In this document: one piece after another, positions 1-42,800 of the stretch
Layout of the letters: every line of letters starts with the position of its first letter
How positions within the stretch are numbered: the stretch's first letter is position 1
Assembly (NCBI GenBank): GCA_963731795.1
Contig: CAVSWU010000003.1
Coordinates: 902,216 to 966,215, forward strand
Origin: an uncultured delta proteobacterium
GTDB taxonomy: Bacteria > Myxococcota > Myxococcia > Myxococcales > Myxococcaceae
Reading direction: 5' to 3'
DNA length: 64,000 bases
Notes under the pieces: model-generated
Databases searched by the model: none
What the model saw: the letters and a program-made list of their open reading frames with translations, nothing else
Told to the model about the DNA's origin: nothing
Made by a program: the position numbers and the translations under genes

Positions 1-781
1 GATCCACGTGCGAGGCCTGCGCCAGCGGCTCCTGGGAGGCCAGCGCCTCACGCGCCGCCTTCGCCCGGGCCAGCCGCTGCGGAAAGTCCTTGAGCAGAGG
101 CCCCAGCGGGTGCGCCTTCACCTTCGCCTCAGCCTCCTCCAGCAGCCCCGAGACGAGCAGGCCCTCCACCTCCAGCTCCAGCAGCCGCGTCTTTGCCTCC
201 TCGCGGTGCTTGCCCGCCGGGAAGTCCCGCAGGTACGCGAAGAGCTTCGTCGCTCCCGAGGCCCGCGCCTGGGCGAAGGCCTGATCATCCAGCCGCGCCT
301 CCACCTCCAACCGCCGCGGATCATCCCCCGCCTCGCGCAGGAAGGCCGAGAGCCGCTTCGGATCCTCCGACGTCGACAGCTCCTTCTGCTCGGCCTCGGT
401 CAGCAGCTTCTGCGCCTCCTCCTTGTGCGCCCCATCCGGGTGATCCGCCAGGAACTGGCGCCAGGCCGCCACCGTGCCCACCTCCTTCGCGGCGTTGAAG
501 CGCAGCCCCTCCAGCAACGCGCGTGCGGCGTGAGCCTGCGAGGCCTCGGGGTGTTCCTCCAGGAAGCGCTTGTAGGCCAGCACCGTGTGGAGCTTCTGCG
601 CCTGCGTGAACTCCAGTTCCTCCAGGCGCGCCTCGGCCGGCTCGGCCATGTCGTCCTTCGGGTACTCGCGGAGGAACTCTCGGTAGGCCTCGGCCGTGTC
701 CGCGTCCTTCGCGCGCTGGTACGCCTGGGACGCACAACCCGTGAGGGACAGCAGCACCGCGAGGACAAGAATCCTGGGCAT
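1..781 (-). CDS. TPR-like (BamD/YbgF-type) outer-membrane lipoprotein, partial. Its 3' end runs off the window start
   Basis: Reverse-strand ATG at 781-779. The N-terminus MPRILVLAVLLSLTGCAS has a signal peptide and an LTGC lipobox. The protein has repeated 'Y/FxxFLxEYP/HP' units typical of BamD/CpoB-like TPR lipoproteins. It is not in the ORF track because no stop lies inside the window. Confidence 0.7.
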   Translation of the reverse strand, partial: MPRILVLAVLLSLTGCASQAYQRAKDADTAEAYREFLREYPKDDMAEPAEARLEELEFTQAQKLHTVLAYKRFLEEHPEASQAHAARALLEGLRFNAAKEVGTVAAWRQFLADHPDGAHKEEAQKLLTEAEQKELSTSEDPKRLSAFLREAGDDPRRLEVEARLDDQAFAQARASGATKLFAYLRDFPAGKHREEAKTRLLELEVEGLLVSGLLEEAEAKVKAHPLGPLLKDFPQRLARAKAAREALASQEPLAQASHVD

Positions 782-911: not shown

Positions 912-1778
912 ATGAGGTTCGTCGCGCTGCTGGCCGGGATGGTGTGGATGACGGGGTGCGCCACGGGTGCCGCGGGGGCTCCGCTGGGCGGCGAGCTGTC
1001 CTTCGAGAACCTGCGCTACCGGCCCGCCACTCCCGCAGCCATGCCTCGCCCCATTCCGAATGAGGCCGAGGAGTCCGAGCCCGCCGTCGCGGAGGCTCCG
1101 TCCCGTGCGGAGCCGCGCCCCGCCGTGGCAAAGCGGGAGACGCCCGCGAGCAGGTCCGCGCCCCGAGTATCGCGCGCCGAGCCGAAGAAGCGTGTGCAGC
1201 CCGTCTCCCATCCTGTCGTGTCCCGGGATGCTCGCGAGACTGGTGCTCACCACCGCCCGCGCGCTGGTCGGCCAGTCCCAGGTGAAGGTGGGAGGCCGCA
1301 CCTACCCGAGCGACTGCACCGGGCTCGTGGAGGCGGTCTATACGGAGGCCGGCCTCTCTCTGCGAGGCACTGCGAAGCCGGGAGACAACGGCGTCACCGC
1401 GCTCTACCGCTACGCCCTGAACCACGGCCGTGTGTACAACGGCGGCCGGCCGGTGGCGGGGGATCTCGTCTTCTTCCGCGAGACGTACGATCAGAACCGC
1501 GATGGCCGGCGCAATGACGGGCTCACCCACGTGGGCATCGTGGACGAGGTGGACCGGGACGGCACCGTCACCGTGATCCACCGCGTGAAGCGCGGCGTGG
1601 TGCGCTACCGGATGAACCTCGCGAAGCCGAGCGTGGGCAAGGATCCTGCCACCGGCAAGATCCTCAACGACACGCTGCGAGCCCCGGGCCAGGGCCACTC
1701 CTTCGCCCTCACCGGCCAGCTCTTCGCGGCGTACGCCACCGTGCTCCCCGGCTCCAAGCCGGTGGTCGTCGCGCAGCG

Positions 1779-1782
<4 letters not shown>
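912..1782 (+). CDS. Lipoprotein with C-terminal CHAP/NlpC-P60-like cysteine peptidase (peptidoglycan hydrolase) domain. There is an apparent +1 frameshift near 1235-1250
   Basis: GGAGG RBS 4 nt before ATG 912. Signal MRFVALLAGMVWMTGC. The linker contains ELSFENLRYRPATPAAMP. The C-terminal domain in the other frame (967..1782) carries the CHAP Cys/His motifs (DCTGLVEAVY ... THVGIV). The frame switch occurs around SRDARE / LVLTTARALVGQ. Confidence 0.6.
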
Positions 1783-4574
<2,792 letters not shown>

Positions 4575-4741: not shown

Positions 4742-5920
4742 TCAAGAGGCGCGGGCGGTGCGATCCCACGCCGGCTTTTGCGCGTTGCGCAGGAATCGCC
4801 AGAAGCCCACCACGATGGCCAGGTTCATCGTCACGAAGTAGTAGGCAATCGACGCGATGCGGCGCCCCGTCCCCTTCAGCACTCCGGCCTTCCCCAGGTA
4901 GGCCAGCGCGTAGAACATGAACTGGGTGAAGAGCGTCAGCCGGTAGAACACGCTATCCAGGAGGAACAGGTTTGCCAGGAGCGCCACCGCCATCAGCGCC
5001 GGCGCGCACCAGCGCAGCAGCTTGTGGGACCAGAAGGCGAACGCGGCGAAGCCCGCCGTGGGCCGCAGCAGCCCCGGCACCAGCTTCAGGCTCTGGAAGT
5101 TGCCCGCGGCGATCCGCGCCCGCCGCCCGAACTCCTTGCCGTAGTCCTCCGTCGTCTCCTCGTGCGCCACCGCCTCGTCCTCGTAGACGACCTTGTAGCC
5201 CTGATCGAGGATCCGCAGTGGGATGACAAAGTCATCCACGATGGTGGACGGAGGAAGCTGCGTGAAGAGCGTGCGGCGGATGGCGTACAGCCCACCGTTG
5301 GCTCCCACCACCGCGCCCCGCTTGCCCTCGTAGAACTTGATGAGCGACTCGTAGCTCCAGTAGGCGCTCTCCTCGTAGTCCTGCTTCGTCGGGTTGTAGA
5401 GCCGCAGCTTCCCGCAGACCGCGCCCACCTCCGGATCCTCGAAGTGGCGCACCAGCGCCTGGAGGGCGTCGGGCTCGATCATCGTGTTCGCGTCCGAGAG
5501 CACGATGATGTCCCCCCGGGCCGAGGGGATGCACCGGTTGAGCACCGTCGTCTTCCCGGCGCGCGGCGCCGGCGACAGCCGCACCCGCGAGTCCGTGCAC
5601 GCGCGGACGAGCTCATCCGTCCCATCCGTGGAGCCGTCCGAGCCAATCAGCACCTCGAAGCGGTCCGCCGGGTACTCCAGCGCCAGGCTGTTCTCCAGCT
5701 TCTGCCGGATGCAGCTCGCCTCGTTGTAGGCGGCCACCACCAGGCTCACCGAGGGCGCCGGCCTCTCCTTCAGCTCCCGGCGCCGGTTCTCCCCCTGCCG
5801 CATGGACCGGAGGGTGTGAAGCACCTGGGCCACACCCTCCAGGACGAAGAGACACAGTGGGTAGAAAAAGTACGTGTGCAACAGCAGCAAGGCCGCGAAC
5901 CAGAAGAAGACCTCCGCCAT
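4742..5920 (-). CDS. Family-2 glycosyltransferase, a membrane protein (PgaC/cellulose-synthase-like)
   Basis: Start MAEVFFWFAALLLLH is an N-terminal TM segment. The protein has DxD-type motifs (LIGSDGSTDGTDE, VLSDANT) and C-terminal TM helices. The longer 528-aa ORF upstream of this start has a composition-biased N-terminus, so the shorter start is preferred. Confidence 0.75.
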   Translation of the reverse strand: MAEVFFWFAALLLLHTYFFYPLCLFVLEGVAQVLHTLRSMRQGENRRRELKERPAPSVSLVVAAYNEASCIRQKLENSLALEYPADRFEVLIGSDGSTDGTDELVRACTDSRVRLSPAPRAGKTTVLNRCIPSARGDIIVLSDANTMIEPDALQALVRHFEDPEVGAVCGKLRLYNPTKQDYEESAYWSYESLIKFYEGKRGAVVGANGGLYAIRRTLFTQLPPSTIVDDFVIPLRILDQGYKVVYEDEAVAHEETTEDYGKEFGRRARIAAGNFQSLKLVPGLLRPTAGFAAFAFWSHKLLRWCAPALMAVALLANLFLLDSVFYRLTLFTQFMFYALAYLGKAGVLKGTGRRIASIAYYFVTMNLAIVVGFWRFLRNAQKPAWDRTARAS

Positions 5921-6086: not shown

Positions 6087-7992
6087 TCAGGGCGCGGGAG
6101 CGGTGGCGGCCGCCCACTTTTGGAGCGTCCGAGCGAGCGTGTGGTTCGGGTTGAGCGCCAGCACCGCGTCGAGCAAGGTCTGAGCCGTGGCCGGATCCTT
6201 CTGGCGCAGCGCCAGGCGGGCCCCCAGCACGTAGGCCCGAAGGAAGGTCTGGTCCTGCTGCCGCACCTGCGCCAGGGCGTCGACGACGTCCGGCAACGCA
6301 GCCGGTGGCGAGTGAGCGTTGAGGGCATACTCGGCCTGCGCGAGGTCGCTCCAGTGTGGGTGGGACTCCACCTTCCTCAGCCGCTCGGCCAGGGCGAGCG
6401 CCTCGGCGGAGCCGCTGACACCCTGGTAGATCGCCTGCGCCTTCACCCGCGCCACCACATCGGCCGACGGCTCCGTCTCGGGGGCCGCACGGATGACCTC
6501 GAAGGCCTGCTCGAGCCGCTTCGTGAGGTTCGCGACAGTGACGCTCGAGCGGTCGCCGCTGCTCGCCCAGGAGGATCAGCTCCTGTCTGCGCGCGTTGAC
6601 CCGGCTGGACCAGTCGGCGGTGGCCTTGGTGATCTCCAACTGGGAGATCTCCTTCTGGAGCCGCGCCTCCTCCAGGCGGATCCAGCTCGAGCTCCACCTG
6701 CGCGTCATCGAGCTGCAGCGCGAGCGCCACCACCAGCTCCGCCTGGGCCTCGGTGAACTTCGGGAACCGGCCCACCAGCGCGCTCAGCTGCTCGATGGCC
6801 TGCGCTCGGGAAGCCGAGTCATCCCGGCGCAGCAGGCTGACTGCCTCGTCCTTGGCGGACAGGGCCTCGACAGGCAGCTCCGCGCCCCGGTTGCGCCAGA
6901 CCGGGTACGACAGCCACGCCGTCAGGCCCAGCGCCACGACTGCCGCCAGGATGATGAGGATTCGCTCCTTGCCACTGCCCGAGGCCGGCTCCGCGGCTGG
7001 CCTGGCGCTCCCGGTCCGCTGCGGAACAATCAGCTCGGGTGGCAGCTCGAGCGCGGGCGCCCGGTGCGGGGCAGCCATGGGCCCACTGCGCTCCACCTCC
7101 GGCTCTGGAGGGAGGGATGGAAGCGCGGGTCCCGGCAGCGGGACAGGCTCTTCGGGCAGCTCGAGGGACGGCCCAGAGGGTAAGGAGACATCCACCATCG
7201 CCTTGCGCGCCGCCTCGACCTCCGCGGAGCCAAAGGTCTGGGTGATAGCCGACGTGGGCTGCGGGGCGGGAACCGAGGCCGCACCGAAAACCTGCGTCGT
7301 GCTGGCCGAGGGCGCCTTCGCGGCCACAGCGGGCGCGCCGAAGACCTGCGTCGTGCTGGCCGATGGGGGCTGGGGAGGGACAGAGGCCGCGCCGAAGACT
7401 TGCGTCGTCGTGGCCGGTGGAGGCTTGGGAGGGACCGAGGCCGCACCGAAAACCTGCGTCGTGGTGGCCGAGGGTGCCTTCGCGGCCACAGCGGGCGCGC
7501 CGAAGACTTGCGTCGTGGTCGCCGGTGGGGGCCGGGGAGGAACCGAGGCCGCACCGAAGACCTGCGTCGTGGTCGGCGAAGCTGCGGGAGTTCCAGGCGC
7601 GCCAAACACCTGGGTCTTCCCCCCGGGTGCCAGGGGCGCACTCACGGTCGCAGCGCCAAAGACCGAGCGTCCGCTGCCGAGACACTGTCGTCCTGCAGGC
7701 TCGCGGCGGCAGGAGCTGGCAGAGCCACTCCGAAGATCTGCGTCGTCTGGGTGTCCGGAGGCCCCTGCGTCGAGGCTCCCGCGAGGGGGCTACCGAAGAC
7801 CTGCGTGGTCGTGGCGATGGAAGCGCGGGAGGCCTGAGGGCTCGGGCTCTGCCCCGGGACGAAGACCGCCCCCGAAGGCGTGGCCGTGAAGACGAAGCTG
7901 CAGCGCGTGCACTGGACCGAGGCCCCCGAGGGCGGCAGCAGCCGAGGGTCGAGATCGTACTGAATCGAGCACTGGGGGCAGGCGATCTGCAC
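6087..7992 (-). CDS. MJ0042-type zinc-ribbon protein with TTQVFG tandem repeats, a TM segment and a C-terminal TPR domain. It is split over three frames by apparent frameshifts near 7650, 6715 and 6565
   Basis: The N-terminus is MQIACPQCSIQYDLDP...VQCTRCSFVF (zinc ribbon). About 13 TTTQVFGA repeats follow. A hydrophobic stretch ILIILAAVVALGLTAWL follows. The TPR-like C-terminus ends ...LNPNHTLARTLQKW. Frame switches sit at homopolymers: at 7650, restoring TTTT where the sequence reads TTT reunites the frames. Confidence 0.6.
7240..7800. repeat. Tandem in-frame coding repeats of ~33-66 nt, encoding the TTQVFGA(S/P) units
   Basis: The motif ccgaagac(c/t)tgcgtcgtg(c/g)t(g/c)gcc recurs more than 12 times on the + strand. 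Confidence 0.8.
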
Positions 7993-27463: not shown

Positions 27464-29365
27464 ATGCCCAGCACCCGCCGCCTCTCTGCCCCACAGCGCC
27501 GAACCGCTCTCGAGCAGCTCGGCCGTGACCGCCTCATCACCCTCACCGACCACTTCGGCCTGGAAGTCGGCGACAAGCGCGTCGCCGAAAACCACGTGAG
27601 CGCCTTGCTCCGGGCCCGGAGCGTGGACTTCTCCGAGCTGCTGGGGCTCCTGACGCGCCAGGAGCTTCAGTCCATCTGCGACGCCCTGGGCCTGGACCGG
27701 GGTGGCCGCGAGAAGGAAGTCCTCGCGCAGAGGATTCTCGACCTTGGGGAGGAGAGCCAGGGGGAGCTGCCCCTGACCGAGGCTGCTCCAGAGGAGGCTC
27801 CTGCGGAGAAGCCCAAGGCAAGCCGCGCCAAGGCTCAGAAGAACGGTGGCGATCTCGGGTTCGAGGCCACGCTCTGGCAGGCGGCGGACAAGCTCCGGAA
27901 CAACATGGACGCGGCCGAGTACAAGCACGTCGTCCTCGGGCTCATCTTCCTGAAGTACATCAGCGATGCCTTCGAGGAGCGCCGCGCCCAGCTCCTGGCC
28001 GAGGTGGACCAGGGGGCGGACCCGGAGCACCCCGACGAGTACCGGGCCGAGAACATCTTCTGGGTCCCCAAGGAGGCCCGCTGGGAGCGGCTCCAGGCCC
28101 AGGCCAAACAGCCGAGCATCGGCAAGCTCATTGACGACGCCATGGTCGCCATCGAGCGGGACAACCCCAGCCTCAAGGGAGTGCTGCCCAAGGAGTACGC
28201 CCGGCCCGGCCTGGACAAGCAGCGCCTGGGGGAGCTGATCGATCTGATCGGCACCATCGGCCTGGGAGATAGGGAGAACCGCAGCAAGGACATCCTCGGG
28301 CGCGTCTACGAGTACTTCCTCTCGGAGTTCGCCAGCGCCGAGGGCAAGAAGGGCGGCCAGTTCTACACGCCCCGCTCGGTGGTGAAGCTCCTGGTGGAGA
28401 TGCTCGCCCCGTACCGGGGCCGGGTCTACGATCCCTGCTGCGGCTCCGGGGGCATGTTCATCCAGAGCGAGAAGTTCGTGGAGGCCCACGGCGGCAAGCT
28501 CGGAGACATCTCCGTGTTCGGGCAGGAGTCCAACCCGACGACGTGGAAGCTGGCGAAGATGAACCTCGCCATCCGGGGCATCGACGCGAACCTCGGGCCC
28601 GAGAACGCGGACAGCTTCCACCGGGATCTGCACAAGGATCTGAAGGCCGACTACATCCTCGCCAACCCGCCGTTTAACGACAGCGATTGGGGTGGAGATC
28701 GGCTCCGCGAGGATGTCCGGTGGAAGTTCGGCGCACCTCCGGTCGGGAACGCGAACTTCGCGTGGGTGCAGAACTTCATCCACCATCTGGCACCGACGGG
28801 GACAGCGGGCTTCGTGCTGGCCAACGGCAGCATGTCCTCAAACCAGAGCGGCGAAGGTGAGATCCGCCGGGCCATTATTGAGGCAGATCTCGTGGATTGC
28901 ATGGTGGCACTCCCTGGGCAACTCTTCTATTCGACGCAGATTCCCGTGTGCTTGTGGTTCCTGGCGCGCGACAAGAAGAACAATCGACACAGGGACCGAC
29001 GGGGCGAAACCCTGTTTATTGACGCGCGAAAACTGGGAAGGATGATCGACCGAACCCACAGGGACCTGATCGACGAAGATATCCAACGGGTCGCTGACAC
29101 TTATCACTCCTGGCGCGGGGACCGCGATGCGGGCAAGTACGAGGACATAACTGGCTTCTGCAAGGCGACTCGGCTCAGCGACATCGCCGTCCACGGTTTC
29201 GTACTGACGCCAGGGCGGTACGTAGGCACGCCTGAAGCTGATGACGAGAAGCCATTCGCGGCGCACTTCTTGAGCCTGCGTGCCACTCTTGAAGAGCAGT
29301 TCGCCGAGTCTGACCGGTTGCAGGCTCGGATTCGCAACTCGCTCGCTCGTGTGAGGGGCGAGTAA
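27464..29365 (+). CDS. hsdM: Type I restriction-modification system methyltransferase subunit
   Basis: It has the N6-adenine methyltransferase motifs [10 protein letters not shown] (motif I) and NPPFN (motif IV), plus an N-terminal HsdM-N-like region. Confidence 0.9.
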
Positions 29366-30651
29366 TGAAGATCGAATGGCCCATCCTATCGCTAGCTGAG
29401 GCGGGGGTGACATTGCTGGATTGTGACCACCGCACTCCGCCTGCTGCCCCTGAGGGATACCCCTACGTCACAATCCCACAGATCAAGGACGGTCGTCTCG
29501 ACCTGTCTGACGTTCGGCGAATTGCTGAAGAGCATTTCCTCGATTGGACAAAGAAAACGCGCCCCATGGCAAACGATGTGGTCGTGGTGCGCCGGTGTAG
29601 CCCTGGGGATAGTGCTCATGTTCCGCCAGGGCTTGAGTTTGCTCTCGGTCAGAATCTTGTGCTTCTGCGCGCAGATGGGACCAGGGTTGCACCTGTATTC
29701 CTGCGATGGTTGGTGAGAAGTCCCTCTTGGTGGGAACAAGTCCAACGCTTCCTGAACGTCGGCGCAGTCTTTGACAGTCTGAAGTGTCGCGAGATTCCCA
29801 ACTTTCGATTGCCGGTCCCTCCCATCGACCAGCAACTTCTTATTGCAGAGGTGCTTGGAAGCCTAGATGAAAAAATCGCTTTGACGCGTCGCATGAACCA
29901 GACACTAGAAGATATGGCCCAGACATTGTTCCGGTCCTGGTTCGTGAACTTCGACCCAGTCCGGGCCAAGGCCAAGGGGCGGCGGCCTGAAGGTATGGAT
30001 GGGGCGATGGCGGCGCTTTTTCCTAACAGGCTCGTCGAATCAGAACTGGGTAACATTCCGGAGGGTTGGGCCAACTCCAGCATCTACGATGTAGCAAGCG
30101 CTGCATATGGAACCCCGTTCGCGTCGAGGCTCTTCAATTCGCAAGGAGATGGACTGCCGCTCATCCGCATCCGCGATCTCTCGACGCATGCTCCAACGAC
30201 CTTCACGCGCGAAGTGCTGGATCGTCAAATTGTCGTTGACCCAGGCGACATCGTGGTGGGCATGGACGGCGAGTTTCGTGTTCATCACTGGCGAGGTCCT
30301 CGCTCGCTAATGAACCAGCGCGTGTGCAAGTTCGTCCCCGCTCCGGGCGTGTCCAGAGTCTTCGTGGCCCAGTCCCTTATCGGGCCAATGCGGTTCTTCG
30401 AGAATACAAAAGCAGGAACGACAGTCATCCACCTCGGGAAGGCAGACATTGACACCATCAAGATCGTGAAGCCGCCCATGAGCATCCAGCAGGTGTTCGG
30501 CAATCTCGCGGAGCCTTTGCTTGAGAGAGTTCTCCTGAACGAGGCGGAAGCGCGGACATTGGCCGACCTACGTGACACTCTCCTCCCGAGGCTGTTATCC
30601 GGGGACATCCGCGTCGGTGAGGCTGAGGCCAAACTGGCGGCGAGCGTCTGA
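29365..30651 (+). CDS. hsdS: Type I restriction-modification specificity subunit
   Basis: Two target-recognition-domain halves with conserved spacer helices. A TAATG overlap joins it to hsdM. GC is ~50-55%. Confidence 0.85.
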   Translation: MKIEWPILSLAEAGVTLLDCDHRTPPAAPEGYPYVTIPQIKDGRLDLSDVRRIAEEHFLDWTKKTRPMANDVVVVRRCSPGDSAHVPPGLEFALGQNLVLLRADGTRVAPVFLRWLVRSPSWWEQVQRFLNVGAVFDSLKCREIPNFRLPVPPIDQQLLIAEVLGSLDEKIALTRRMNQTLEDMAQTLFRSWFVNFDPVRAKAKGRRPEGMDGAMAALFPNRLVESELGNIPEGWANSSIYDVASAAYGTPFASRLFNSQGDGLPLIRIRDLSTHAPTTFTREVLDRQIVVDPGDIVVGMDGEFRVHHWRGPRSLMNQRVCKFVPAPGVSRVFVAQSLIGPMRFFENTKAGTTVIHLGKADIDTIKIVKPPMSIQQVFGNLAEPLLERVLLNEAEARTLADLRDTLLPRLLSGDIRVGEAEAKLAASV

Positions 30652-30729
30652 TCGAGAGCCCGAACCTCACCGAGCCCTTTGACGCGGATGCGGGCGGGCC
30701 ACGATCAGCGCCGCTGATTCGGTGGACGA

Positions 30730-30790
30730 TGGGCGAGACGGACAGCAGCGGCTGCACTTCATGTCTGGACGTCCAGACATGAGAGTGGGA
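30730..30790. repeat. Palindromic repeat element, copy 1
   Basis: GGCTGCACTTCATGTCTGGACGTCCAGACATGAGA; the perfect 22-bp palindrome CATGTCTGGACGTCCAGACATG lies at 30760-30781. Confidence 0.85.
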
Positions 30791-31041
30791 GCGCCCCCCC
30801 CGGCAGCTCCTCCTCTCCCTCTCCTTCGAACGATCTGTAGAGGTGCGGCGCGAATCCCCAGGGGTCCGCTGCGACCGCCTTTGGCAAGCCGCACCCAGCA
30901 CGTTGGGCAAACAGAGAGAGCGCGGTGGGAGGCGAGAGGCCCACGCGGCATCACCCGGCAGGGCGTGGTGTTCCCTCCAGCAGCGGGTTCTACTGCTGCC
31001 TGACTCCGCTCCTGTCCGGGTAAGCGGAGGGGGGAGGACAC

Positions 31042-32661
31042 ATGCGTGCGGACCGCTTCCACCTGCTCCACTGCCGCAGCGCTCGGCATTGGGTTGTGCT
31101 CGTGCTCTGGGGATTGCTGGCAGGCTGCGCCAGCGGCAGAGCGGGGCCTCCCCTGGGCGGGGTGAGGGACTTCGAGGCGCTGCGCTACCGGCCTGCCACC
31201 CCGGAGCCCATGCCTGACACGGCGGCGGCGCGCAAGAGGGCGCAGTCGCAGCCCCAACCAGCCCTCGCGGGCAGTGGTAGCCCTGCGGGGATGGTGGCGC
31301 GCTCGGTGCTGGGCGGTGTCCAGCAACTGGACACCTTCGAGCAGGTACTGGTGCTGGCCGGGCTGGACAACCCCGAGGCACTCCCCTCGCCCGAGGCGCC
31401 CCTCCCCCCCGAGGACGCGGCGGCGCTGTATGACGAGCTGCTGGACAAGCCCGTCCCCCTGGCCCGCTTCGGTCCTCGGCTGGTGGCCACCTACCTGTTG
31501 CGCGAAGCCATGGAGGGGGATGAGGAGCTGCCCCGGGCGGTTCTGCTCCAGCGCGTGCAGCGCTTCAAGGGGCTGGCGGTGCTGCGGCCCGACGGCTACC
31601 TGGCGTGGGCGCTCACCGGACAGACGCAGCAGCACGTGGCCGAGGTGGAGTGGAAGGACGGCGCCTTCCGGGCTCATGACTTCGAGGTGGGGCACTTCTA
31701 CTCGGGCCGCAACGCCATGGCCTTCTTCGCGGTGGATGAGCAACTGCGGGACAGGAAAGAGTCCGGCGTGCTGGCCGAGGTGTACGACGACGCGGATGTC
31801 ATCAGCCGCGTGCTGGACGGAGCCGAGGCTTCCTACGTCGAGTTGGCCCTCTCCATCGGCAAGCTGGTGAGCCACCCCCTCCAGAGCGCCGAGGACTTGA
31901 AGCACCTGCCCTCCGCCCTGGCCGCCCTCATTGAGAGCTCGCCCGAGTACCTGGAGCGCTTCCGGCTGATGACGCGCGGAGAGCAGATCCGTGCGCTGTC
32001 GAAGCTGGGCACCACGCTGCTGTCCACCTACGGAGCGGCGGGGGGCACCACGCGCACGGTGGCGGCGGTGGGCAGTGGGATGGAGTCCGTCTCCGTGCCC
32101 GCGCTGACGCTCACGGCGGAGGGGGCGCTGGTGGTGGAGCGAGTCATGGTGCCCGCAGGGCGCGTGGTGACGGCGCTCAGCGGCGGGCCTGGAGCGGCCA
32201 TCATCCTTCAGCGCGCTGGCGACGCGGCCAGCGGAGGACAGCCCACTGCTCCGGAGGGCCCCGGCGAGTGGGGCCCGGCCAACGAGTCCATGAGCAAGCG
32301 CTCGGCGCGCTACCAGGAGCAGATCACCGGCCACTCCGCCAGCGAGGCGTACTGGGTGGGCGGCAAGGACTTGAAGAGCGGCGGCGTGAAACTCGACGGC
32401 TTCAAGGACGGAACGCTGCTGGATGCCAAGGGCCCCGGCTACGCCAACAAGTTCAACGACAACCTCACGCCCAAGAAGTGGTTCGCGCCCTCGGGAGCCA
32501 AGCAGCTCATCAAGCAGGCCCAACGCCAGCTCAATGTGGCCAAGGGCGTTCCCATCCGCTGGCATGTGGCGGAGAAGAAGGCCGCGGACGCCATCCGGAA
32601 GCTCTTGGAGGATGCGCCGATCACGGGGATTGAAGTGGTCTACACTCCCGCGTTGCAATAA
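31042..32661 (+). CDS. Lipoprotein polymorphic toxin candidate with a C-terminal PD-(D/E)xK restriction-endonuclease-fold domain (Tox-REase-like)
   Basis: GGAGG RBS. Signal with LLAGC lipobox. The leader contains DFEALRYRPATPEPMP. The C-terminal ~130 aa reads GHSASEAYWVGGKDLKSGGVKLDGFKDGTLLDAKG...IRWHVAEKK, with a D...D-x-K motif. Two paralogous immunity-like genes follow. Confidence 0.7.
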   Translation: MRADRFHLLHCRSARHWVVLVLWGLLAGCASGRAGPPLGGVRDFEALRYRPATPEPMPDTAAARKRAQSQPQPALAGSGSPAGMVARSVLGGVQQLDTFEQVLVLAGLDNPEALPSPEAPLPPEDAAALYDELLDKPVPLARFGPRLVATYLLREAMEGDEELPRAVLLQRVQRFKGLAVLRPDGYLAWALTGQTQQHVAEVEWKDGAFRAHDFEVGHFYSGRNAMAFFAVDEQLRDRKESGVLAEVYDDADVISRVLDGAEASYVELALSIGKLVSHPLQSAEDLKHLPSALAALIESSPEYLERFRLMTRGEQIRALSKLGTTLLSTYGAAGGTTRTVAAVGSGMESVSVPALTLTAEGALVVERVMVPAGRVVTALSGGPGAAIILQRAGDAASGGQPTAPEGPGEWGPANESMSKRSARYQEQITGHSASEAYWVGGKDLKSGGVKLDGFKDGTLLDAKGPGYANKFNDNLTPKKWFAPSGAKQLIKQAQRQLNVAKGVPIRWHVAEKKAADAIRKLLEDAPITGIEVVYTPALQ

Positions 32662-32671
32662 GACAGGCCTT

Positions 32672-33403
32672 GTGAGCGAGACGTACTACATCGGTGGTTA
32701 CTGGGGCGCGCGGAGGGAGGATGCCGAGTCGTGCGCTCGGCGCATCGCCGCGTTGGTGCAGGCGCTGGCGCCTGTCGATCCGCTCTTTGTCAGCTGGTTC
32801 AAGACCGCGAAGTCCCTCAAGGAATCCCTCAAGCGTCCGCTGGAGTTCGAACTCGCCAGCCTCTCCAAGTACGTCCAGCGCAACATCATGCGTGACGACA
32901 GGCGCAAACCCATGGAAGACCTGGGCTTTACCGTCTGGTTGTGGAACGGGGACCGGGGGGGCAACGACGCCTGGTTGCAGATGAGCTGTGGCGTAGCTTC
33001 AGAGCGAGTGAGCAACAGCTGTGTTCTCAGAGCGCCCTTCGAGGGGCCTGGAGCGGAGCGGGTCCTGACCACCGCTTTCCAGGTTCAAGCGCTGCGGGCC
33101 ATCGTCACTGCTTGGGATCCGGACTGGGGAGTAGGCATGTCGCGTGATCATCGAGACATCATCGGTCCCAGGTGCCCACACGTGCTGGTAGGCTGGGTGA
33201 CATACCTCTCGCGCCGCTTGGGCCGTGTACCCCCGCTGCCCGCGCCCGTGCGCATTGAGCCCTTGGAGGACAAAGGCACGCTCGTCATCCTCACCCCCGA
33301 GCGCTTCACCGCCTCCAACCCCGAGCACGTCGCCCTGGCCGAGCGCGTCCGCGAGCTGCTCGACCGCGCCGGGCTGCTCGGCAAGCCGCGTCCTGAGAAG
33401 TAG
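32672..33403 (+). CDS. Immunity-like protein 1 (a paralog of the 33575 gene)
   Basis: GTG start 10 nt after the toxin stop. (M)SETYYIGGYWGAR...WDPDWGVGMSR. It is ~80% identical to the next ORF. Confidence 0.65.
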   Translation: MSETYYIGGYWGARREDAESCARRIAALVQALAPVDPLFVSWFKTAKSLKESLKRPLEFELASLSKYVQRNIMRDDRRKPMEDLGFTVWLWNGDRGGNDAWLQMSCGVASERVSNSCVLRAPFEGPGAERVLTTAFQVQALRAIVTAWDPDWGVGMSRDHRDIIGPRCPHVLVGWVTYLSRRLGRVPPLPAPVRIEPLEDKGTLVILTPERFTASNPEHVALAERVRELLDRAGLLGKPRPEK

Positions 33404-33424
33404 GTTCAGGGCCTGCAATGGACG

Positions 33425-33486
33425 GTGGCAGAGACAGGCAGCGACGGCTGCACTTCATGTCTGGACGTCCAGACATGAGAGTTGGA
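33425..33486. repeat. Palindromic repeat element, copy 2
   Basis: The same element as copy 1; the 22-bp palindrome lies at 33456-33477. Confidence 0.85.
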
Positions 33487-33574
33487 GCGTGCTATCTGGC
33501 AGTTCCTCCCCTCCCAGGTAGCAGCGCGTTATCCTCGCTCCTCGGCACGCCCGCGCTGCAATGAGACAGGCCCC

Positions 33575-34306
33575 ATGATCGAGACGTACTACACGGGTGT
33601 TTACTGGGGCGCGCGGAAAGAGGACGCTGAAGCCTGCGCGCGTCGCATCGCGGCCCTGGTCCAGTTGCTTCAGCCAGTGGATCCGCTCTTCGCCAGTTGG
33701 TTCAAGGGCTCGAAGTCTCTCAAACAGTCCCTCCAACGCCCGCTGGAACTCGAACTCTCCAGTCTCCAAAAGTACATCCAGCGCAACCTCATGCGTGACG
33801 ACAGGCGCCAGCCCATGGAGGATCTGGGCTTCAGTGTTGGTCTGTGGAATGGGCATCAGGGGGGTAACCACGCTTTTCTGAGCATTGGCTGCGGGGGATA
33901 TTGGGATCAGCTGAGCAATAGCTGTGTTCTGGATGCTCCGGATGAGGGGCCTGGTTCAGAGCGCGTCCTGACAACGGACTTCCAAGTTCAGGCGCTGCGG
34001 GCACTCGCCACCGCGTGGGACCCAGATTGGGGAGTGGGCATGTCACGTGCTCATCGGGACATCATTAAGGAGAAGTGCCCACACGTGCTGGTGGGCTGGG
34101 TGACGTACCTCTCGCGCCGCTTGGGCCGTGTACCCCCACTTCCTGCGCCCGTGCGCATCGAGCCCGTGGAGGACAAAGGCGCGCTCATCATCCTCACCCC
34201 CGAGCGCTTCACCGCCGCCAACCCCGAGCACGTCGCCCTGGCCGAGCGCGTCCGCGAGCTGCTCGACCGCGCCGGGCTGCTCGGCAAGCCGCGTCCTGCA
34301 CAGTAG
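33575..34306 (+). CDS. Immunity-like protein 2 (a paralog of the 32672 gene)
   Basis: MIETYYTGVYWGAR... The C-terminal ~100 aa are nearly identical to immunity 1. It is preceded by a copy of the toxin's last ~15 nt (cccgcgctgcaatgagacaggcc). Confidence 0.65.
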   Translation: MIETYYTGVYWGARKEDAEACARRIAALVQLLQPVDPLFASWFKGSKSLKQSLQRPLELELSSLQKYIQRNLMRDDRRQPMEDLGFSVGLWNGHQGGNHAFLSIGCGGYWDQLSNSCVLDAPDEGPGSERVLTTDFQVQALRALATAWDPDWGVGMSRAHRDIIKEKCPHVLVGWVTYLSRRLGRVPPLPAPVRIEPVEDKGALIILTPERFTAANPEHVALAERVRELLDRAGLLGKPRPAQ

Positions 34307-34324
34307 GTTCAGCGCCTGCGGTGG

Positions 34325-34390
34325 GCGGCGGGAGAGCCAGGCCGCGGCGGCTGCACTTCATGTCTGGACGTCCAGACATGAGAATCAGAG
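34325..34390. repeat. Palindromic repeat element, copy 3
   Basis: The same element; the 22-bp palindrome lies at 34359-34380. Confidence 0.85.
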
Positions 34391-34437
34391 CACGCCACCT
34401 CAGCCTCCCGCCGCCCCTTCTCGTGAGCCGCGCCTGC

Positions 34438-35163
34438 TCAGCGCGCGGCCGGCGGGACCGCATCCATCAGCGCCTCGATCACCTTGTCGACCTCCGCCAG
34501 AGGAAAGTCCCGCAAGGTCCCGAGGATGGTGCCCTTCTGGTTGCGAGCGGTGAGCTGGATGCGGCTGCTCTTGTCGGTGAACTTGCGCGCCAGCGAGTCA
34601 CGGTAGCGCTTGATCCGCTCCGCATCCTCCTTGGGAATGGGCATGTTGGAGGTGGGCCGGCGCAGGCGCTGCAGGGCCTTGCGCAGCTCCACCACGCTGC
34701 AGTTGGCGAAGGACTTCTCCTGGGTCGCGCCGTCCTTGTCGACCACGGTGATGGGGAAGAGGCCCGGGTCGTTCCTGTCGGCCTTCTTGCCGGTGGCCTC
34801 TTCGTAGGTGAGCAGCAGGCCCAGGCGCGAGATGCCGTACTGCACGCACACCTCCTGGCTGAACTCGCGGGCCACGGCGCCGTACGCGGCCAGGGTGGCC
34901 CGCGACAACTCCTTCAGTTCTTTGGCGAAGAAGTCGGGCGCATCCTTGTAGCCCGCATCCTCCGCCAGATTGTGGGTGACGACGTAGTTGTAGATGAGAC
35001 CAATCTGGTAGAAGTTGATCTCGCTCTGCCCCAGGATCTGGCGAATGGTGGAGGGGACTTCTTCGATCGTCATCCCCTCAAGCGAGCCGTTGAGGCGGGG
35101 ATTGAGAATGGCCTGGGTGAGGTTCGACATCGGATCTTGAGCTGCGACAACAGGCTTTTGCAT
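34438..35163 (-). CDS. Hypothetical protein embedded in the Type I R-M locus
   Basis: 241-aa ORF with real coding statistics and ~60% GC. It has no recognisable motif. It is divergent from hsdR. Confidence 0.55.
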   Translation of the reverse strand: MQKPVVAAQDPMSNLTQAILNPRLNGSLEGMTIEEVPSTIRQILGQSEINFYQIGLIYNYVVTHNLAEDAGYKDAPDFFAKELKELSRATLAAYGAVAREFSQEVCVQYGISRLGLLLTYEEATGKKADRNDPGLFPITVVDKDGATQEKSFANCSVVELRKALQRLRRPTSNMPIPKEDAERIKRYRDSLARKFTDKSSRIQLTARNQKGTILGTLRDFPLAEVDKVIEALMDAVPPAAR

Positions 35164-35319
35164 GTGAGACGTTCCTTGGTTGGAGCTGCGTGATTGCTGC
35201 GCTCCCTCCTAAAGCAGGGCCCGTGCCAACACAGAGGCCAGTGAAATGGCCCCCTTACGCGAAGGGGCTCCCCTCCCCCCATCTCACTTCGTGGACTGGA
35301 CAGTCTCATTCGGTGGACT

Positions 35320-38562
<3,243 letters not shown>

Positions 38563-38583
38563 CCCGAGGTGGCGCGCTGAGCT

Positions 38584-39624
38584 TCAGCCCAGCGGAACAG
38601 TCCGTCCCTCGGCGGCGCTGCGGTGCGCGGCCTCCAGCACGCGGATCACCTCGCTGGCGCTCTCCGCCGTCACGGGCACCGGGCCCCTCTCCCCTCAGGG
38701 CCGCGGCGAGCTGCCGGTAGAACTCTTCGTAGCGGCCCGGCACCGTGGGCACGATCCCGCCTCGGCTCAGCCGTCCGTACCGCTCCGCTGGTTCGGCGCC
38801 CCACCCCGCCATCCCCGGCCTCAGCCCGGCCTTGAGCTGCTCCTCCTGCGGATCCAGCCCGTATTTGAAGTAGGCATCCGCCTCGCCCTGCAAGACGAAG
38901 CGCGTCCACGGCTCATGCACCACCGAGCCCGAGCGAAGGATCACGCGCAGCTCTCCGTAGCGCAGCAGCAGGTGGAACCAATCCACCGCCTGCGCCCCGG
39001 GCCTCTGCCGGCCGGCGTCGGCCATGATCGACTCCGGCATACCGAACAGCTGCAGCGCCTGATCCACCAGGTGCGCACCCAGATCCCACAGCGTGCCCCC
39101 TCCCGGCCCAGCCTCCTCCTTCCAGCGCTTCTTCACCTCCGGCCGGAAGCGATCAAAGTGGCTCTCGAAGCTGTAGAGCCTCCCGAGGCGCCCCTGCTCC
39201 ACCAACTGGCGGACCGTCAGGAAGTCCCCGTCCCAGCGGCGGTTCTGGAAGACGGCCAGGCAGAGGCCTCGCTCCCGAGCCAACGCTCCCAGCCGGGCCG
39301 CCTCCGCCGAGTCCAACGTGTAGGGCTTCTCCACGACGACGTGCTTGCCCGCCAGCAGCGCCCGCTCCGCCAGCGCCGCATGGCTGTCCGTGGGCGAGGC
39401 GACGATGATCAGCTCCAGCGCCGGATCCGCCAGCAGCGCCTCCACGGACAGTACGCGCGCCCCCGGCCAGTCCCGCGCGACCGCGTCGGCGCTCCGGGTG
39501 GCGACAGCACTCAGAGTGAAGGCCGGCTCCCTGCCCAGCAGCGGAGCATGGAAGCTGGCTCCGGCCAGGCCGTAGCCGATCAGACCCACGCGAAACACAT
39601 CTCTTTTCGGGAGCGAATCGGGCA
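38584..39624 (-). CDS. Gfo/Idh/MocA-family NAD(P)-dependent oxidoreductase, with an apparent frameshift near 38685
   Basis: Rossmann motif [10 protein letters not shown] and the EKP motif are present. Removing one G from CCCGGTGCCC restores the C-terminus ...[34 protein letters not shown]. Confidence 0.75.
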
Positions 39625-39804
39625 TCTCTGGACCGTAACGCGGCAGCGACTCCCACCCCAAGCCCCTCTCCCCCCGTCTCCCGGGGGGCCAACCACGCTT
39701 TTCGTCAAGGAAGTCGGGAACTTGAGAGGCCGGCCAAGCACGTGTTACGACCGCGACGGCCAGAGCCGCTGCCACGACTTCCCCTCTGCCGGAGCCTGCT
39801 TCCC

Positions 39805-42800
39805 ATGAGCGAGCAGAACGATCTCACGAGGACCTCGTCCTCTGCCTCCATCCCCGCGCCAGCAGGCACTCCCGCGAGGCCCACAACCGAGGTCCTCGCC
39901 CAGAACGTGAGCGCGCTGCCGGTGGCCACCCCTCCCGAGGATGAGGCCCGCGAGCGCCTCGCCGCGCTGGAGCGCGAAGCCCGCGCCCTGGTGCCAGCGA
40001 TCCGCAGGCCGCCGCCCTGCTCTTCCACGAGATCGGCCTGCTCTGGGAGGAGACGCTCAAGAACCCGCGCAACGCGGCCGTCGCCTTCCAGAACGCCTAC
40101 AAGCTGGCGCCGAGCTTCCTCGCGAACATCCGCGCCGCGCGCCGCCTCTTCGCGGACGTGGGCAACTGGCAGATGGTCATCCAGCTGCTCGACGCGGAGC
40201 TGGCGCGGCACCGAGGAGCCTCGCCAGAAGGCCACGCTGCTCTTCGAGAAGGCCACCATCCTCGAGGAGCGCCTCGTCGCGCGAGGCGGACGCCAAGGCC
40301 GCCTGGCAGCAGTGCCTGGAGCTGAAGCCCACCGAGGTCGGCCTGCTCACCCAGCTCGAGGCCCACTACGCGGCGCGCAACGACTACGAGTCGCTGGTCG
40401 AGGTGTACCGGCTGCTCGCCGGCACGCTGGAGCACCCCGCCGCTGCGCGCGCACTACCTCACCACCGCGGGCCTGGTGCTCGAGGAGCGCCTCAAGCAGC
40501 GCGAGGCCGCCGCCGACTTCTTCCGCGAGGCCTTCGCGCTCGACCGCTCGGACCTGCTGCTGCTCGCGGCCATGAAGCGCGTGGCCGAGCGCGAGGGCCG
40601 CGCCGACGAGCTGCTGGCCGCGCTGGCCGCCGAGGCCGACGTGCTCGGCACCCAGGCCACGCCCGCCTACCTGCAGATCGCCAAGGTCTACGAGCGCATG
40701 GGCCGCAAGGATGACGCGCTGGCCGCGCTGCTCGCCGCGCGCCGCGTCACCCCGAACGAGCCGCTCGTCCTCTCCGAGCTGGCCGGCATCTACGAGACGC
40801 AGGGCCGCTACGAGGAGCTGGCGGACGTGCTGCTCGGCGTGGGTGGGCTCCATCACCGACGAGAGCGAGCTGGTGGCCATCAACCTGCGCCTGGCCGCGC
40901 TCTACGAGGAGGATCTCAAGCGCGAGCACGGAGGCCATCGCCCGCTACCAGGCGATCCTCTCGCGCATCCCCGGCCACGCCCCCGCGCTGGCGGGCCTGG
41001 GCAAGCTCTACCACCGCGCTGCAGAACTGGGAGGGGCTCGTCTCCGTCTTCGACGCGGAGATCGCCGCCGCCGAGGACGCCCGCGCAGAAGGCCGCCCGC
41101 ATGTACAAGGCCGCCGAGGTGCTCGAGGAGCGGCTCGGGCGGCAGGACGAGGCCATCGCCCGCTACAACGACTGCCTCCAGCTCCAGCCGGGCTACCTGC
41201 CCGCGCAGAAGGCCCTCTCGCGCCTCTACGAGCGCCAGGGCCGCTTCGCCGAGCTGGTCGCGCATGTACGAGCAGGATCTGCTGCAGACCACCGATCGCG
41301 ATCAGCTCATCTCCACGCTCAACAAGATGGCGGTCCTCTACGAGGAGCGCCTCAGCGATCTCGATCACGCCATCGACTGCATGAAGCGGATCCTCGATCT
41401 GGCCTCCGATCACCTGCCCACCATCCGCAACCTGTCGCGGCTCTACGAGCGCGCCGGGCGCTACCGCGAGCTGATCGAGACCGCAGGAGCTGGAGGCCTC
41501 GTTCGCCGGCGACACCAAGCAGGTGCTGTCGCTCTACCACCGCAACGCGGAGATCCTCGACGAGCACCTCAAGGATCGCACCGGCGCCATCGGCCATGTA
41601 CGAGCGCGTGCTGGCGCTCTCTCCCTCGTACCTGCCCGCGCTCAAGGCGCTGGGGCGGCTCTACGCGCAGGAGGGCCGCTGGAGCGAGCTGATCAAGATG
41701 TACCGGGCGGAGGCGGAGATCTCTCCCTCCACCGAGCAGGCCGCCACGCTGCAGTTCAAGATCGGCGAGCTGTACGAGCACCGGCTCAAGAGCCAGAACG
41801 AGGCCATCGCCGCCTACCAGGAGGTGCTCACGCTGGCGCCCAGCTACTTCCCCGCGCTGCGCGCGCTGGCTCGCATCTACCGGGCCAACGGCCACTGGGA
41901 GAAGCTGATCGAGGTGCTGCGCGCCGAGGCCGCCAACCGCATCGATCCGGTCGAGCGCGCCAACGCCCTCTTCCAGGCCGCCGCCATCTGGGAGGACCAG
42001 CTGCAGCGGCCCGAGCTGGCCATCGAGGGCTACCAGGAGGTGCTCGGCTGACGCCGGGCCACGCCGCCGCCCTGCGCGCCCTGGAGCGGCTCTACACCAC
42101 CCAGGACAACATCAAGGAGCTGGTGGCCATCCTGGATCGCGAGACCCAGGTGGGCCAGACGCCGGGCGCCAAGGTGGCCGCCTACCTCAAGCTGGCGCGC
42201 CTGTACCTGGATCGCTTCAAGGAGCCCGCCCGCGCCGCCCAGTGCTGCGAGGCCGTGCTCCAGCTGGATCCCGGCCAGCTTCACCGCGCTGAAGATGCTC
42301 GAGCGCATCCGCGCCGGGGACAAGCCGCGCCGCGCCGAGCTGCGCTTCCGCCTCTCCGAGCACGTGCAGGAGACACGCCTGCGCACCGCGCTGCGCCTGT
42401 CCGCCGCCGCGGATCAGGACAAGGGCTCCACCGAGGCCACGCTGGAGGAGTACAAGCCGGCCTTCCAGGAGGATCCCTCGGACGTGCGCGTGGCCTTCGC
42501 GCTGGAGCGCGCGCTGCGCCAGGCCGGGGACTTCGCCGGCCTGGCCTGGCTCTACAGCCGCCGCCTGGAGGTGGTGACCGAGCCCATCGAGCGCGTGGAG
42601 CTGCTGCTGCGCATCGCGGACCTGTCCGAGCACAAGCTGGGCGATCTGGAGCGCGCCGGCCAGCTCTACCGGGCCGCGCTGGAGGCCCAGCCGCAGTGCC
42701 TGCCCGCGCTCAGGGCTCGCGCCGCGTGCAGCTCAAGCAGGGCAACGTCGCCGCGGCCCGCGCCACCCTGGAGGCCGAGGCCCGCGCCAGCCGCGATCCC

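Follow-up and report, generated by a model that had tools for sequence, protein, structure and literature searches.

Origin of the question

Why should a cell-wall hydrolase and a nuclease toxin encoded in the same genome carry the same short segment behind their lipidated cysteines? The question is raised by a 64-kb stretch of DNA (the whole of which was analysed and is called the window below; 68.6% G+C; contig CAVSWU010000003.1 of assembly GCA_963731795.1) from an uncultured member of the Myxococcaceae. Gene 1 of the window encodes a lipoprotein with a CHAP/NlpC-P60 domain, and a second gene encodes a lipoprotein nuclease assigned by homology to the SitA3 family of outer-membrane-exchange (OME) toxins. 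Downstream of the lipobox cysteine both carry PLGG-x3-FE-x-LRYRPATP-x2-MP, with 16 of 22 residues identical, and in both the motif begins at +9 from the lipidated cysteine. The answer favored here is that toxins of this kind are probably imitating the hydrolase in order to use one of its envelope partners.

Two lipoproteins with one leader

In translation, gene 1 begins (from the ATG at 912) with MRFVALLAGMVWMTGC-ATGAAGA-PLGGELSFENLRYRPATPAAMP, and the N-terminal part of the 539-residue toxin contains ...VLVLWGLLAGC-ASGRAGP-PLGGVRDFEALRYRPATPEPMP. A six-frame scan of the window found LRYRPATP and FE.LRY at two sites only, which are these two genes, and pairwise BLASTP with composition adjustment aligned the two proteins at 54 bits (E=1e-12) over residues ~4-79 of gene 1 and ~19-82 of the toxin, i.e., over the lipobox and about 60 residues beyond it. 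An earlier reading of the window, made from its letters and translations (the sequence-only reading), had proposed that the CHAP gene and the nuclease gene share a post-lipobox leader and that their C-terminal domains are unrelated; both peptides are present as it quoted them, and the domains are of different kinds (CHAP/NLPC_P60 versus Tox-REase-5 with a TseT-like fold). Chance likeness between two Pro/Gly/Ala-rich tethers in a genome of 69% G+C might be suspected, both regions being of low complexity and rich in G+C, but its probability is vanishingly small: it is refuted by the composition-adjusted E-value together with the recurrence of the motif in hundreds of orthologs and dozens of toxins.

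Similarity between the two genes at the DNA level begins near the Cys codon, and pairwise protein and DNA comparison found no relatedness between their signal peptides, their 5' untranslated regions and upstream DNA, or their downstream parts. Since the similarity includes neither signal peptide nor ribosome-binding site (RBS) nor promoter, it does not reflect a simple 5'-end capture, and capture of a whole 5' end by the toxin gene was ruled out because signal peptides and upstream DNA are unrelated. In AlphaFold models, toxin residues 30-93 have a predicted local distance difference test score (pLDDT) below 50, and the model of CHAP residues 17-108 is likewise of low pLDDT and devoid of secondary structure; as modelled, the shared segment is a short linear motif of ~22 residues in a predicted disordered tether between the lipidated cysteine and the fold. 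Neither the gene 1 protein nor the toxin had a match in NCBIfam.

The motif in the CHAP lipoprotein family

Gene 1 gave Pfam matches to CHAP (9.4e-9) and NLPC_P60 (3.9e-6). The sequence-only reading had described a CHAP hydrolase spanning 912-1782; the lipoprotein N-terminus and the CHAP domain are real, but two frames had been silently spliced, and the interval holds no single intact open reading frame (ORF), the N-terminus lying in frame 891/912-1517 and the CHAP domain at ATG 1228-1782. Dropping one base at ~1239 (GAG-A-CTG) yields a 289-residue protein colinear with full-length orthologs. The extra base is either an assembly error or the mark of a pseudogene, and the public record of gene 1 in this genome is a 184-residue CHAP fragment alone (P0159). 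Other conserved genes of the window are interrupted as well: a Zn_ribbon ortholog (6123-7992, minus strand) aligns in three frames, and hsdR is broken into a pair of ORFs that overlap (35320-37296 and 36851-39808, plus strand). That many frameshifts within 64 kb, the single extra base in the CHAP gene included, suggest indel errors of the assembly rather than pseudogenes.

The repaired protein has relatives at 100% coverage, and a full-length homolog is present in every named genus recovered, with identities of 78-90% in Hyalangium, ~65% in Stigmatella, and 52-60% in Corallococcus, Myxococcus, Pyxidicoccus, Archangium, Cystobacter, Vitiosangium, and Aggregicoccus. The locus order UvrD-HEAT / CHAP / GT2-Zn_ribbon-HHH is kept in the window and in two distant genomes (L001, L006), the genome scan found at most one CHAP-gene pattern match per assembly, and in the window and the compared loci no immunity gene adjoins the CHAP gene, the flanking genes being of housekeeping type and on the opposite strand. 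Among 113 aligned orthologs, T14, G15, C16, A17, and T18 around the lipidated cysteine are invariant or nearly so, P24, R35, Y36, P41, P45, and R46 within the leader are conserved at 90% or more, the next ~60 residues are unconserved, and C137, H208, and H225 of the catalytic domain (pLDDT >90 in the model of an ortholog) are invariant. The motif is present in 110 of the 111 full-length orthologs with a detectable lipobox, follows the consensus GCATG-x(1-5)-P[LM]GG-x7-RY[RSH][PS]-x-[TS]P-x2-x-PR, and is as conserved as the catalytic core. Judged by these comparisons, the home of the motif is a conserved, syntenic CHAP/NlpC-P60 lipoprotein of the Myxococcaceae and Archangiaceae, where it is under strong purifying selection. 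Gene 1 itself is best classified as a cell-wall hydrolase lipoprotein of housekeeping type, because orthologs are full-length, synteny is kept, the C-terminus is conserved, and no immunity gene is adjacent.

This bears on a further interpretation, in which both window proteins are polymorphic effectors sharing a delivery domain and the CHAP protein is itself a peptidoglycan-hydrolase toxin delivered by OME. In other systems, antibacterial effectors are commonly CHAP/NlpC-P60 amidases, which speaks for it. A further point in its favor is that OME can in principle transfer any outer-membrane (OM) lipoprotein (PMC5562445). The conserved ortholog with its housekeeping synteny, the opposite-strand neighbors, the missing adjacent immunity gene, and a C-terminus that is conserved (55-90% identity) and not polymorphic make this interpretation very improbable, and synteny and conservation largely refute it. 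The suggestion of the sequence-only reading that a common N-terminal module sits on polymorphic effectors survives for the toxins alone: the leader does occur on toxins with dissimilar bodies and nucleases (SitA3-like, P0250, L010, and L011, described below), but the CHAP protein is no polymorphic effector.

A SitA3-family toxin and its immunity genes

Several features together support classification of the window nuclease, by sequence criteria, as an OME lipoprotein toxin of the SitA3 family. The lipobox (LLAGC-ASGRAG) has Ala and no Lys at +2, in agreement with the OM sorting criterion of PMC5562445; the peptide AAIILQRA at residue 385 equals that encoded by the SitA3-Mf1 chimera primers (PMC8546572 Table S1C); the nuclease belongs to PF15648, the Pfam family also of SitA3-Mf1; an Imm52 gene follows downstream; and relatives of the toxin carry lipobox strings of the published SitA3 list (QTACATGYPMG, STGC[IV]TV type; 2017 supplement). 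Homology of the escort domain to that of SitA3 is supported indirectly. The likeness to the published SitA3/SitI toxins (PMC5562445, PMC8546572) extends to the ~375-residue escort domain ending in AAIILQRA, the position of the immunity gene directly downstream, the restriction to Myxococcaceae and Archangiaceae, and the non-core insertion context, and the window toxin is an ordinary new member of that family. Relatives of the toxin (which is identical to P0001) number in the hundreds, all of them lipoproteins of ~500-540 residues with Tox-REase-5 and from the same bacterial families; two paralogs (P0002, P0003) lie on the same 4.25-Mb contig. The toxin-Imm52 arrangement recurs at two further loci (L004, L005), and the second Imm52 gene of the window (33482-34306) is likely to be an orphan.

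Conservation in the family alignment sets in at residue ~95. The sequence-only reading had considered that the leader might be an escort domain; in the SitA literature, the term denotes the ~375-residue family-defining N-terminal region (PMC8546572). In the window toxin the folded residues ~95-380 belong to this region, and the motif lies in the tether ahead of the fold, so that the name does not apply. Foldseek matched the nuclease fold to TseT (7dym_A) and PA3907 (9oz0_B), the match being to the nuclease domain only, and returned nothing for the escort domain. These two type VI secretion system effectors share the Tox-REase-5 fold with the window toxin and differ from it in delivery route and N-terminal regions. 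The toxin and both Imm52 genes are inserted in a type I restriction-modification operon (27464-39808), between hsdM/hsdS (27464-30651) and hsdR (35320-39808).

Distribution of the leader

A profile of 39 columns (lipobox and motif) was run, with no word filter, over 1.84 billion representative proteins at a cut-off of E<=1e-3. Of the 24 representatives matched, 22 were CHAP orthologs or toxin-like lipoproteins (some of them fragments), and the other two were artefacts, i.e., unrelated eukaryote-like repeat proteins. The matches include SitA3-like toxins with a distant branch (P0254, P0257, P0261) and P0250 (of which P0262 is a fragment), a lipoprotein that differs from them in its body and ends in a nuclease of the AHH type. 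Because the matches are confined to CHAP orthologs and lipoprotein toxins, the motif is not a general feature of lipoproteins. The sequence-only reading had named two outcomes that would count against it, a chance pair and an occurrence on many non-effector lipoproteins; the resemblance is not due to chance, and in the profile search the motif was not spread over ordinary lipoproteins.

A degenerate DNA pattern was also scanned over one genome per species; it covers P-[LMV]-G-G-x7-RY-x-P-x-TP only and misses variants T2, T3, and T5. It gave 27 matches, of which the ten outside the Myxococcaceae and Archangiaceae are without lipobox context and look like chance occurrences (the rough prior estimate was ~9). 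The remaining matches are CHAP orthologs and toxins of the Archangiaceae and Myxococcaceae, and they add two further architectures. One (L010, 5943-8000, minus strand) is a 685-residue lipoprotein with no Pfam match, a PD-(D/E)xK-like C-terminus, and a downstream gene that is faintly TsiV-like; the other (L011, 2581-3774, minus strand) is a lipoprotein of ~368 residues with a sub-threshold Tox-REase-9 match. Both may represent undescribed OME toxin families. In an all-against-all BLAST, the toxin architectures (SitA3-like/Tox-REase-5, P0250, L010, and L011) are alike in their first 35-60 residues only. A basic tail, PDTAAxRK(K/R)AQ, follows the leader in toxins (residues 59-70 of P0001, at 31216-31251; L010; L011; P0245) and not in CHAP orthologs, and in this part of the tether the window toxin and the otherwise unrelated L010 are 55% identical over 58 residues.

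Lineage-matched variants

The toxin and CHAP families have at least four lineage-specific variants of the motif in common. In T1 the CHAP version is PLGGxxxFExLRYRPATP and the toxin has the same pattern; the corresponding CHAP and toxin versions are PMGSLVDLEDMGYSPATP and PLGSLAELDAMEYHPATP in T2, PMGFRVASASLRHRPATP and PVGHRVAAGGIRYRPATP in T3, and PMGGYAVASSFRYRPLTPP and PMGGHVVGGDFRYRPLTPP in T4. On a tree of toxin bodies, the motif versions are clade-specific. Seven same-genome pairs, confirmed or inferred, were compared: the window, H. gracile (in which toxin and CHAP gene were matched by source organism name), H. versicolor, the CBFGSI01 metagenome-assembled genome, GCA_035296065, GXIMD 01537, and Archangium SZUA-606. 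Scored as gapless 22-mers, the identities between each toxin and the CHAP protein of its own genome sum to 95 over the seven genomes. Permuted pairings average 78.6 (sd 4.2), and 6 of 5040 permutations reach the observed sum, with ties that arise from swapping the three Hyalangium genomes, which the test cannot tell apart and which take some weight from the result. The distance from Cys to motif is equal in five of the seven pairs (+9/+9 in three, +6/+6 in two). Independent divergence from one ancestral copy cannot account for such a pattern; either DNA was exchanged or selection favored one and the same sequence.

Synonymous sites bear on the choice between the two. At identical residues, 39 codons were identical as well, where local codon usage would predict 33.3 (z=1.37). 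In QKJM01 the string FRYRPLTPP is common to toxin and CHAP protein and yet differs in 5 of 9 codons, and in GXIMD identical codons fall below expectation (3-4 observed versus 5-7 expected) with the residues retained. Since the synonymous sites are near random, the sameness is maintained mainly by selection at the protein level, and recent gene conversion as the sole cause was rejected by the codon test. The positions P1, G3, R12, Y13, R14, P15, T17, P18, and P22 are conserved in toxins and CHAP proteins alike; the correlation of the two conservation profiles (r=0.87) is given little weight, since some of the positions compared were already set by the extraction pattern and the argument is to that extent circular.

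The same data bear on a genetic explanation, in which recombination or gene conversion has brought a 5' segment of the CHAP gene into toxin genes of the same genome, and does so again from time to time, with a leader that is functional only in the hydrolase and that the toxins carry as neutral baggage. Such events would be expected to leave too many identical codons, as seen in GCA_035296065, the only genome with a clear excess in the pooled codon test (z=2.4; GGC-AGC-CTC, which encodes the derived G-S-L, is among them), and to some degree in the window pair (z=1.7-2.3); the leader is clearly mobile among toxin architectures, and many SitA3 homologs have lost the motif and kept the gene. This explanation is nevertheless unlikely, given that signal peptide, RBS, and promoter are outside the similarity, that pooled synonymous sites are near random and those of GXIMD show a codon deficit, and that the toxins conserve the positions of the CHAP motif (an argument that is partly circular) and its spacing from Cys, with flanking tether sequence that diverges freely.

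A proposed role for the leader

The explanation preferred here, at a rough probability of one half, is that the toxins mimic the tether motif of the hydrolase to engage the same, co-evolving envelope partner. The motif would be read by a partner that co-evolves with it in each lineage, and the toxin leader would recruit that partner by imitating the tether of the CHAP hydrolase. By OME the toxin would be placed, lipid-anchored, into the inner OM leaflet of a kin cell, from which it would have to be released before reaching the cytoplasm; recognition or cleavage of the tether could bring about this release or a hand-over to a periplasmic import route. The targets being kin, the leader would have to match the local CHAP version, and copying a housekeeping substrate would make resistance costly.

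Release or hand-over in the recipient is the step most likely to be served, because SitA must leave the OM, because cleavage by a protease within the disordered stretch behind the lipobox has been put forward as the solution to its still unresolved release (PMC8546572), and because loss of MXAN_2422, a protein with a peptidase, a TolB-like propeller, and an OM barrel, gives partial resistance to SitA3 (PMC8546572). A protein of the MXAN_2422 type would be a candidate partner. A more specific version can be offered tentatively, and is doubtful as a whole: the leader may be a lineage-tracking mimic with which OME toxins of several families recruit the protease or adaptor of the hydrolase in the recipient, which cuts the toxin free of the OM and so supplies the missing first step of SitA entry; the match between leader and local CHAP version would then set an extra layer of kin range, not recognized before, and resistance would be costly.

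The position of the motif near the lipidated cysteine and its conserved spacing could also be explained by a generic sorting signal that acts in the producer cell (in Lol-dependent OM targeting, inner-leaflet retention, avoidance of export to the surface or matrix, or loading into OM vesicles). Post-lipobox sorting motifs occur in other phyla, the lipoprotein export signal of the Bacteroidota being one. For Myxococcus, PMC5562445 cites Bhat 2011 on the sorting of lipoproteins according to their early residues. A sorting signal would be expected on many lipoproteins, and the profile search matched CHAP orthologs and toxins only; most SitA toxins are without the motif though also OM-bound; and lineage-specific co-variation is not expected with a conserved Lol machinery. 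A producer-cell sorting role is accordingly rated as improbable.

Several observations weigh against mimicry of the hydrolase. The toxin family alignment and tree contain large SitA3 clades without the motif (the Archangium, Cystobacter, and Corallococcus types). Positions +2 to +7, as published for M. xanthus SitA3 (ASGCATLTPLS) and for the M. fulvus HW-1 homologs, are unlike it; a delivery signal required by all such toxins, as could be taken from the sequence-only reading, is contradicted by these clades and by M. xanthus SitA3. In H. versicolor one paralog (L031) bears the motif and another (P0012) has it deleted. Such homologs indicate that the leader is dispensable for the family and an optional add-on. 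The profile search found no toxin with the CHAP variant of Myxococcus and Corallococcus, RYRSASPPAFPR. The excess of identical codons in two of six genomes (GCA_035296065 and the window, with the z values given above) means that some DNA exchange may contribute to the co-variation, the assignment of L010 and L011 as toxins is based on architecture and sub-threshold Pfam matches, and the mechanism itself (partner, binding, and cleavage) is something that we only infer. Clean deletions of the motif were also observed within the motif-bearing toxin clade (P0012, P0016, P0018; e.g., GCATDSARPFRGGAAGRGGPPAMVARSV), with a sister paralog in the same genome that retains it.

The exit of SitA from the recipient OM is an acknowledged gap, and PMC8546572 names neither a cleavage site nor a native substrate. 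For a subset of toxins the leader offers a candidate site of 22 residues, a candidate native protein with the same site, and natural swap variants (T1-T4). If mimicry of the hydrolase is correct, this would be a clear bacterial case of a toxin that copies a housekeeping short linear motif and tracks it through evolution; if the leader is mere recombinational baggage, it would still be a mobile cassette spread across several toxin architectures.

Comparison with known systems

Published SitA families are defined by the escort domain, with the lipobox listed for -3 to +7 only, and the disordered post-lipobox region is mentioned without a conserved motif or a link to a CHAP lipoprotein; in both respects the leader described here differs. 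The motif, its spread over several architectures, its CHAP origin, and its co-variation have no mention in PMC5562445 or PMC8546572 (the 2019 PNAS family paper lies outside this comparison), and the motif therefore appears to be undescribed in the SitA literature compared. A full-text literature search for a link between OME and CHAP returned nothing.

In colicins, the disordered translocation domain contains a TolB box that competes with Pal for TolB. Colicin parallels have been discussed for SitA (PMC8546572). The leader may be analogous to the TolB box, as a short linear motif in the disordered N-terminus of a nuclease toxin that resembles a motif of an endogenous OM lipoprotein and for which the hijacking of a host envelope protein is proposed; what would be looked for in a motif of the TolB-box type, namely a location in a disordered region and the same motif in an endogenous protein of the target cell evolving in step with it, is found here. 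The two have no sequence relation and differ in that the window toxin is itself a lipoprotein delivered by membrane fusion and that mimicry here consists of literal sequence identity co-varying with the host gene, as known from sequence alone.

E. coli MepS (Spr) is an NlpC/P60 OM lipoprotein under the control of the NlpI-Prc adaptor-protease pair. By analogy, an OM-anchored NlpC/P60 hydrolase whose level or activity depends on recognition by a periplasmic protease system could serve as a precedent for the reading of the CHAP lipoprotein by a partner, although the MepS tether has no sequence similarity to that of the CHAP protein; we know of no toxin that exploits the NlpI-Prc system of MepS. 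The N-terminal trafficking modules of polymorphic toxins, such as MIX, FIX, LXG, PAAR/Rhs, and PT-TG (Zhang et al. 2012, cited in PMC8546572), are alike in that one N-terminal module is combined with many unrelated C-terminal toxin domains. They are folded and specific to secretion systems, whereas the leader is a linear motif of 22 residues shared with a housekeeping protein that is not a toxin.

Features of the window

The features of the two loci are collected in Table 1.

Table 1. Positions of the two lipoprotein genes, their parts, and associated genes in the window.
Feature	Position	Strand	Basis or remarks
HEAT gene	781..5	-	Conserved neighbor of the CHAP gene
CHAP/NlpC-P60 OM lipoprotein gene	912..1782	+	Disrupted by a 1-nt insertion near 1239; full-length orthologs, synteny
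Type II signal peptide and lipobox MTGC, Cys codon 957-959	912..959	+	Translation
Leader motif PLGGELSFENLRYRPATPAAMP, +9 from lipidated Cys	981..1046	+	Conserved in orthologs; low pLDDT
Variable Pro/Ala/Glu-rich linker, predicted disordered	1047..1238	+	Ortholog alignment, AlphaFold
CHAP/NlpC-P60 catalytic domain, +1 frame relative to 912	1240..1782	+	Pfam
GT2 gene	5920..4751	-	Conserved neighbor of the CHAP gene
SitA3-family lipoprotein nuclease toxin, 539 aa, identical to P0001	31042..32661	+	GGAGG upstream of ATG; Pfam, family comparison
Signal peptide and lipobox LAGC, Cys29, Cys codon 31126-31128	31042..31128	+	Sequence unrelated to the CHAP signal peptide
Leader motif PLGGVRDFEALRYRPATPEPMP, aa 37-58, +9 from Cys	31150..31215	+	Inside tether aa 30-93, pLDDT <50
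Toxin-specific basic tail (PDTAAARKRAQ...) and rest of the predicted disordered tether	31216..31323	+	Common to L010, L011; low pLDDT
Folded SitA3-type escort domain part, aa ~95-380, then conserved junction GGPGAAIILQRA	31324..32217	+	Alignment, AlphaFold (AF2) boundaries
Linker, aa 380-404 of toxin			AlphaFold model
Tox-REase-5 (PD-(D/E)xK) nuclease domain, model aa 405-539	32254..32658	+	Pfam 8.4e-16 over aa 422-511
Imm52 immunity gene (sitI-like), GTG start, 11-nt gap after toxin stop	32673..33403	+	Pfam Imm52 2.4e-80
Second Imm52 gene	33482..34306	+	Pfam Imm52 9.4e-78

The divergent intergenic region of 130 bp between the HEAT and CHAP genes (782-911) is strongly conserved in Hyalangium, Archangium, and Vitiosangium, and the same conservation was seen at L001, L007, L009, L015-L018, L020, L022, L024, L026, L028, L029, and L032. 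Its elements include a hairpin (CCCAAGC...GCTTGGG) with GGTTTTTTGACGACAC behind it and, ahead of the ATG, the conserved string GTGGACT..ACAGGGAGG. The region may serve as a promoter/operator or encode a leader RNA; the idea that the CHAP gene is preceded by a riboswitch was rejected, there being no Rfam match.

Between the CHAP and GT2 genes of the window lies a gene (1779-4574, minus strand) for a secreted beta-propeller protein of 931 residues, with Lactonase/SGL-type repeats and a C-terminal TSP3 repeat, whose stop codon overlaps the stop region of the CHAP gene. Since no gene separates CHAP from GT2 in the two further genomes compared, the propeller gene is a lineage-specific insertion at the locus.

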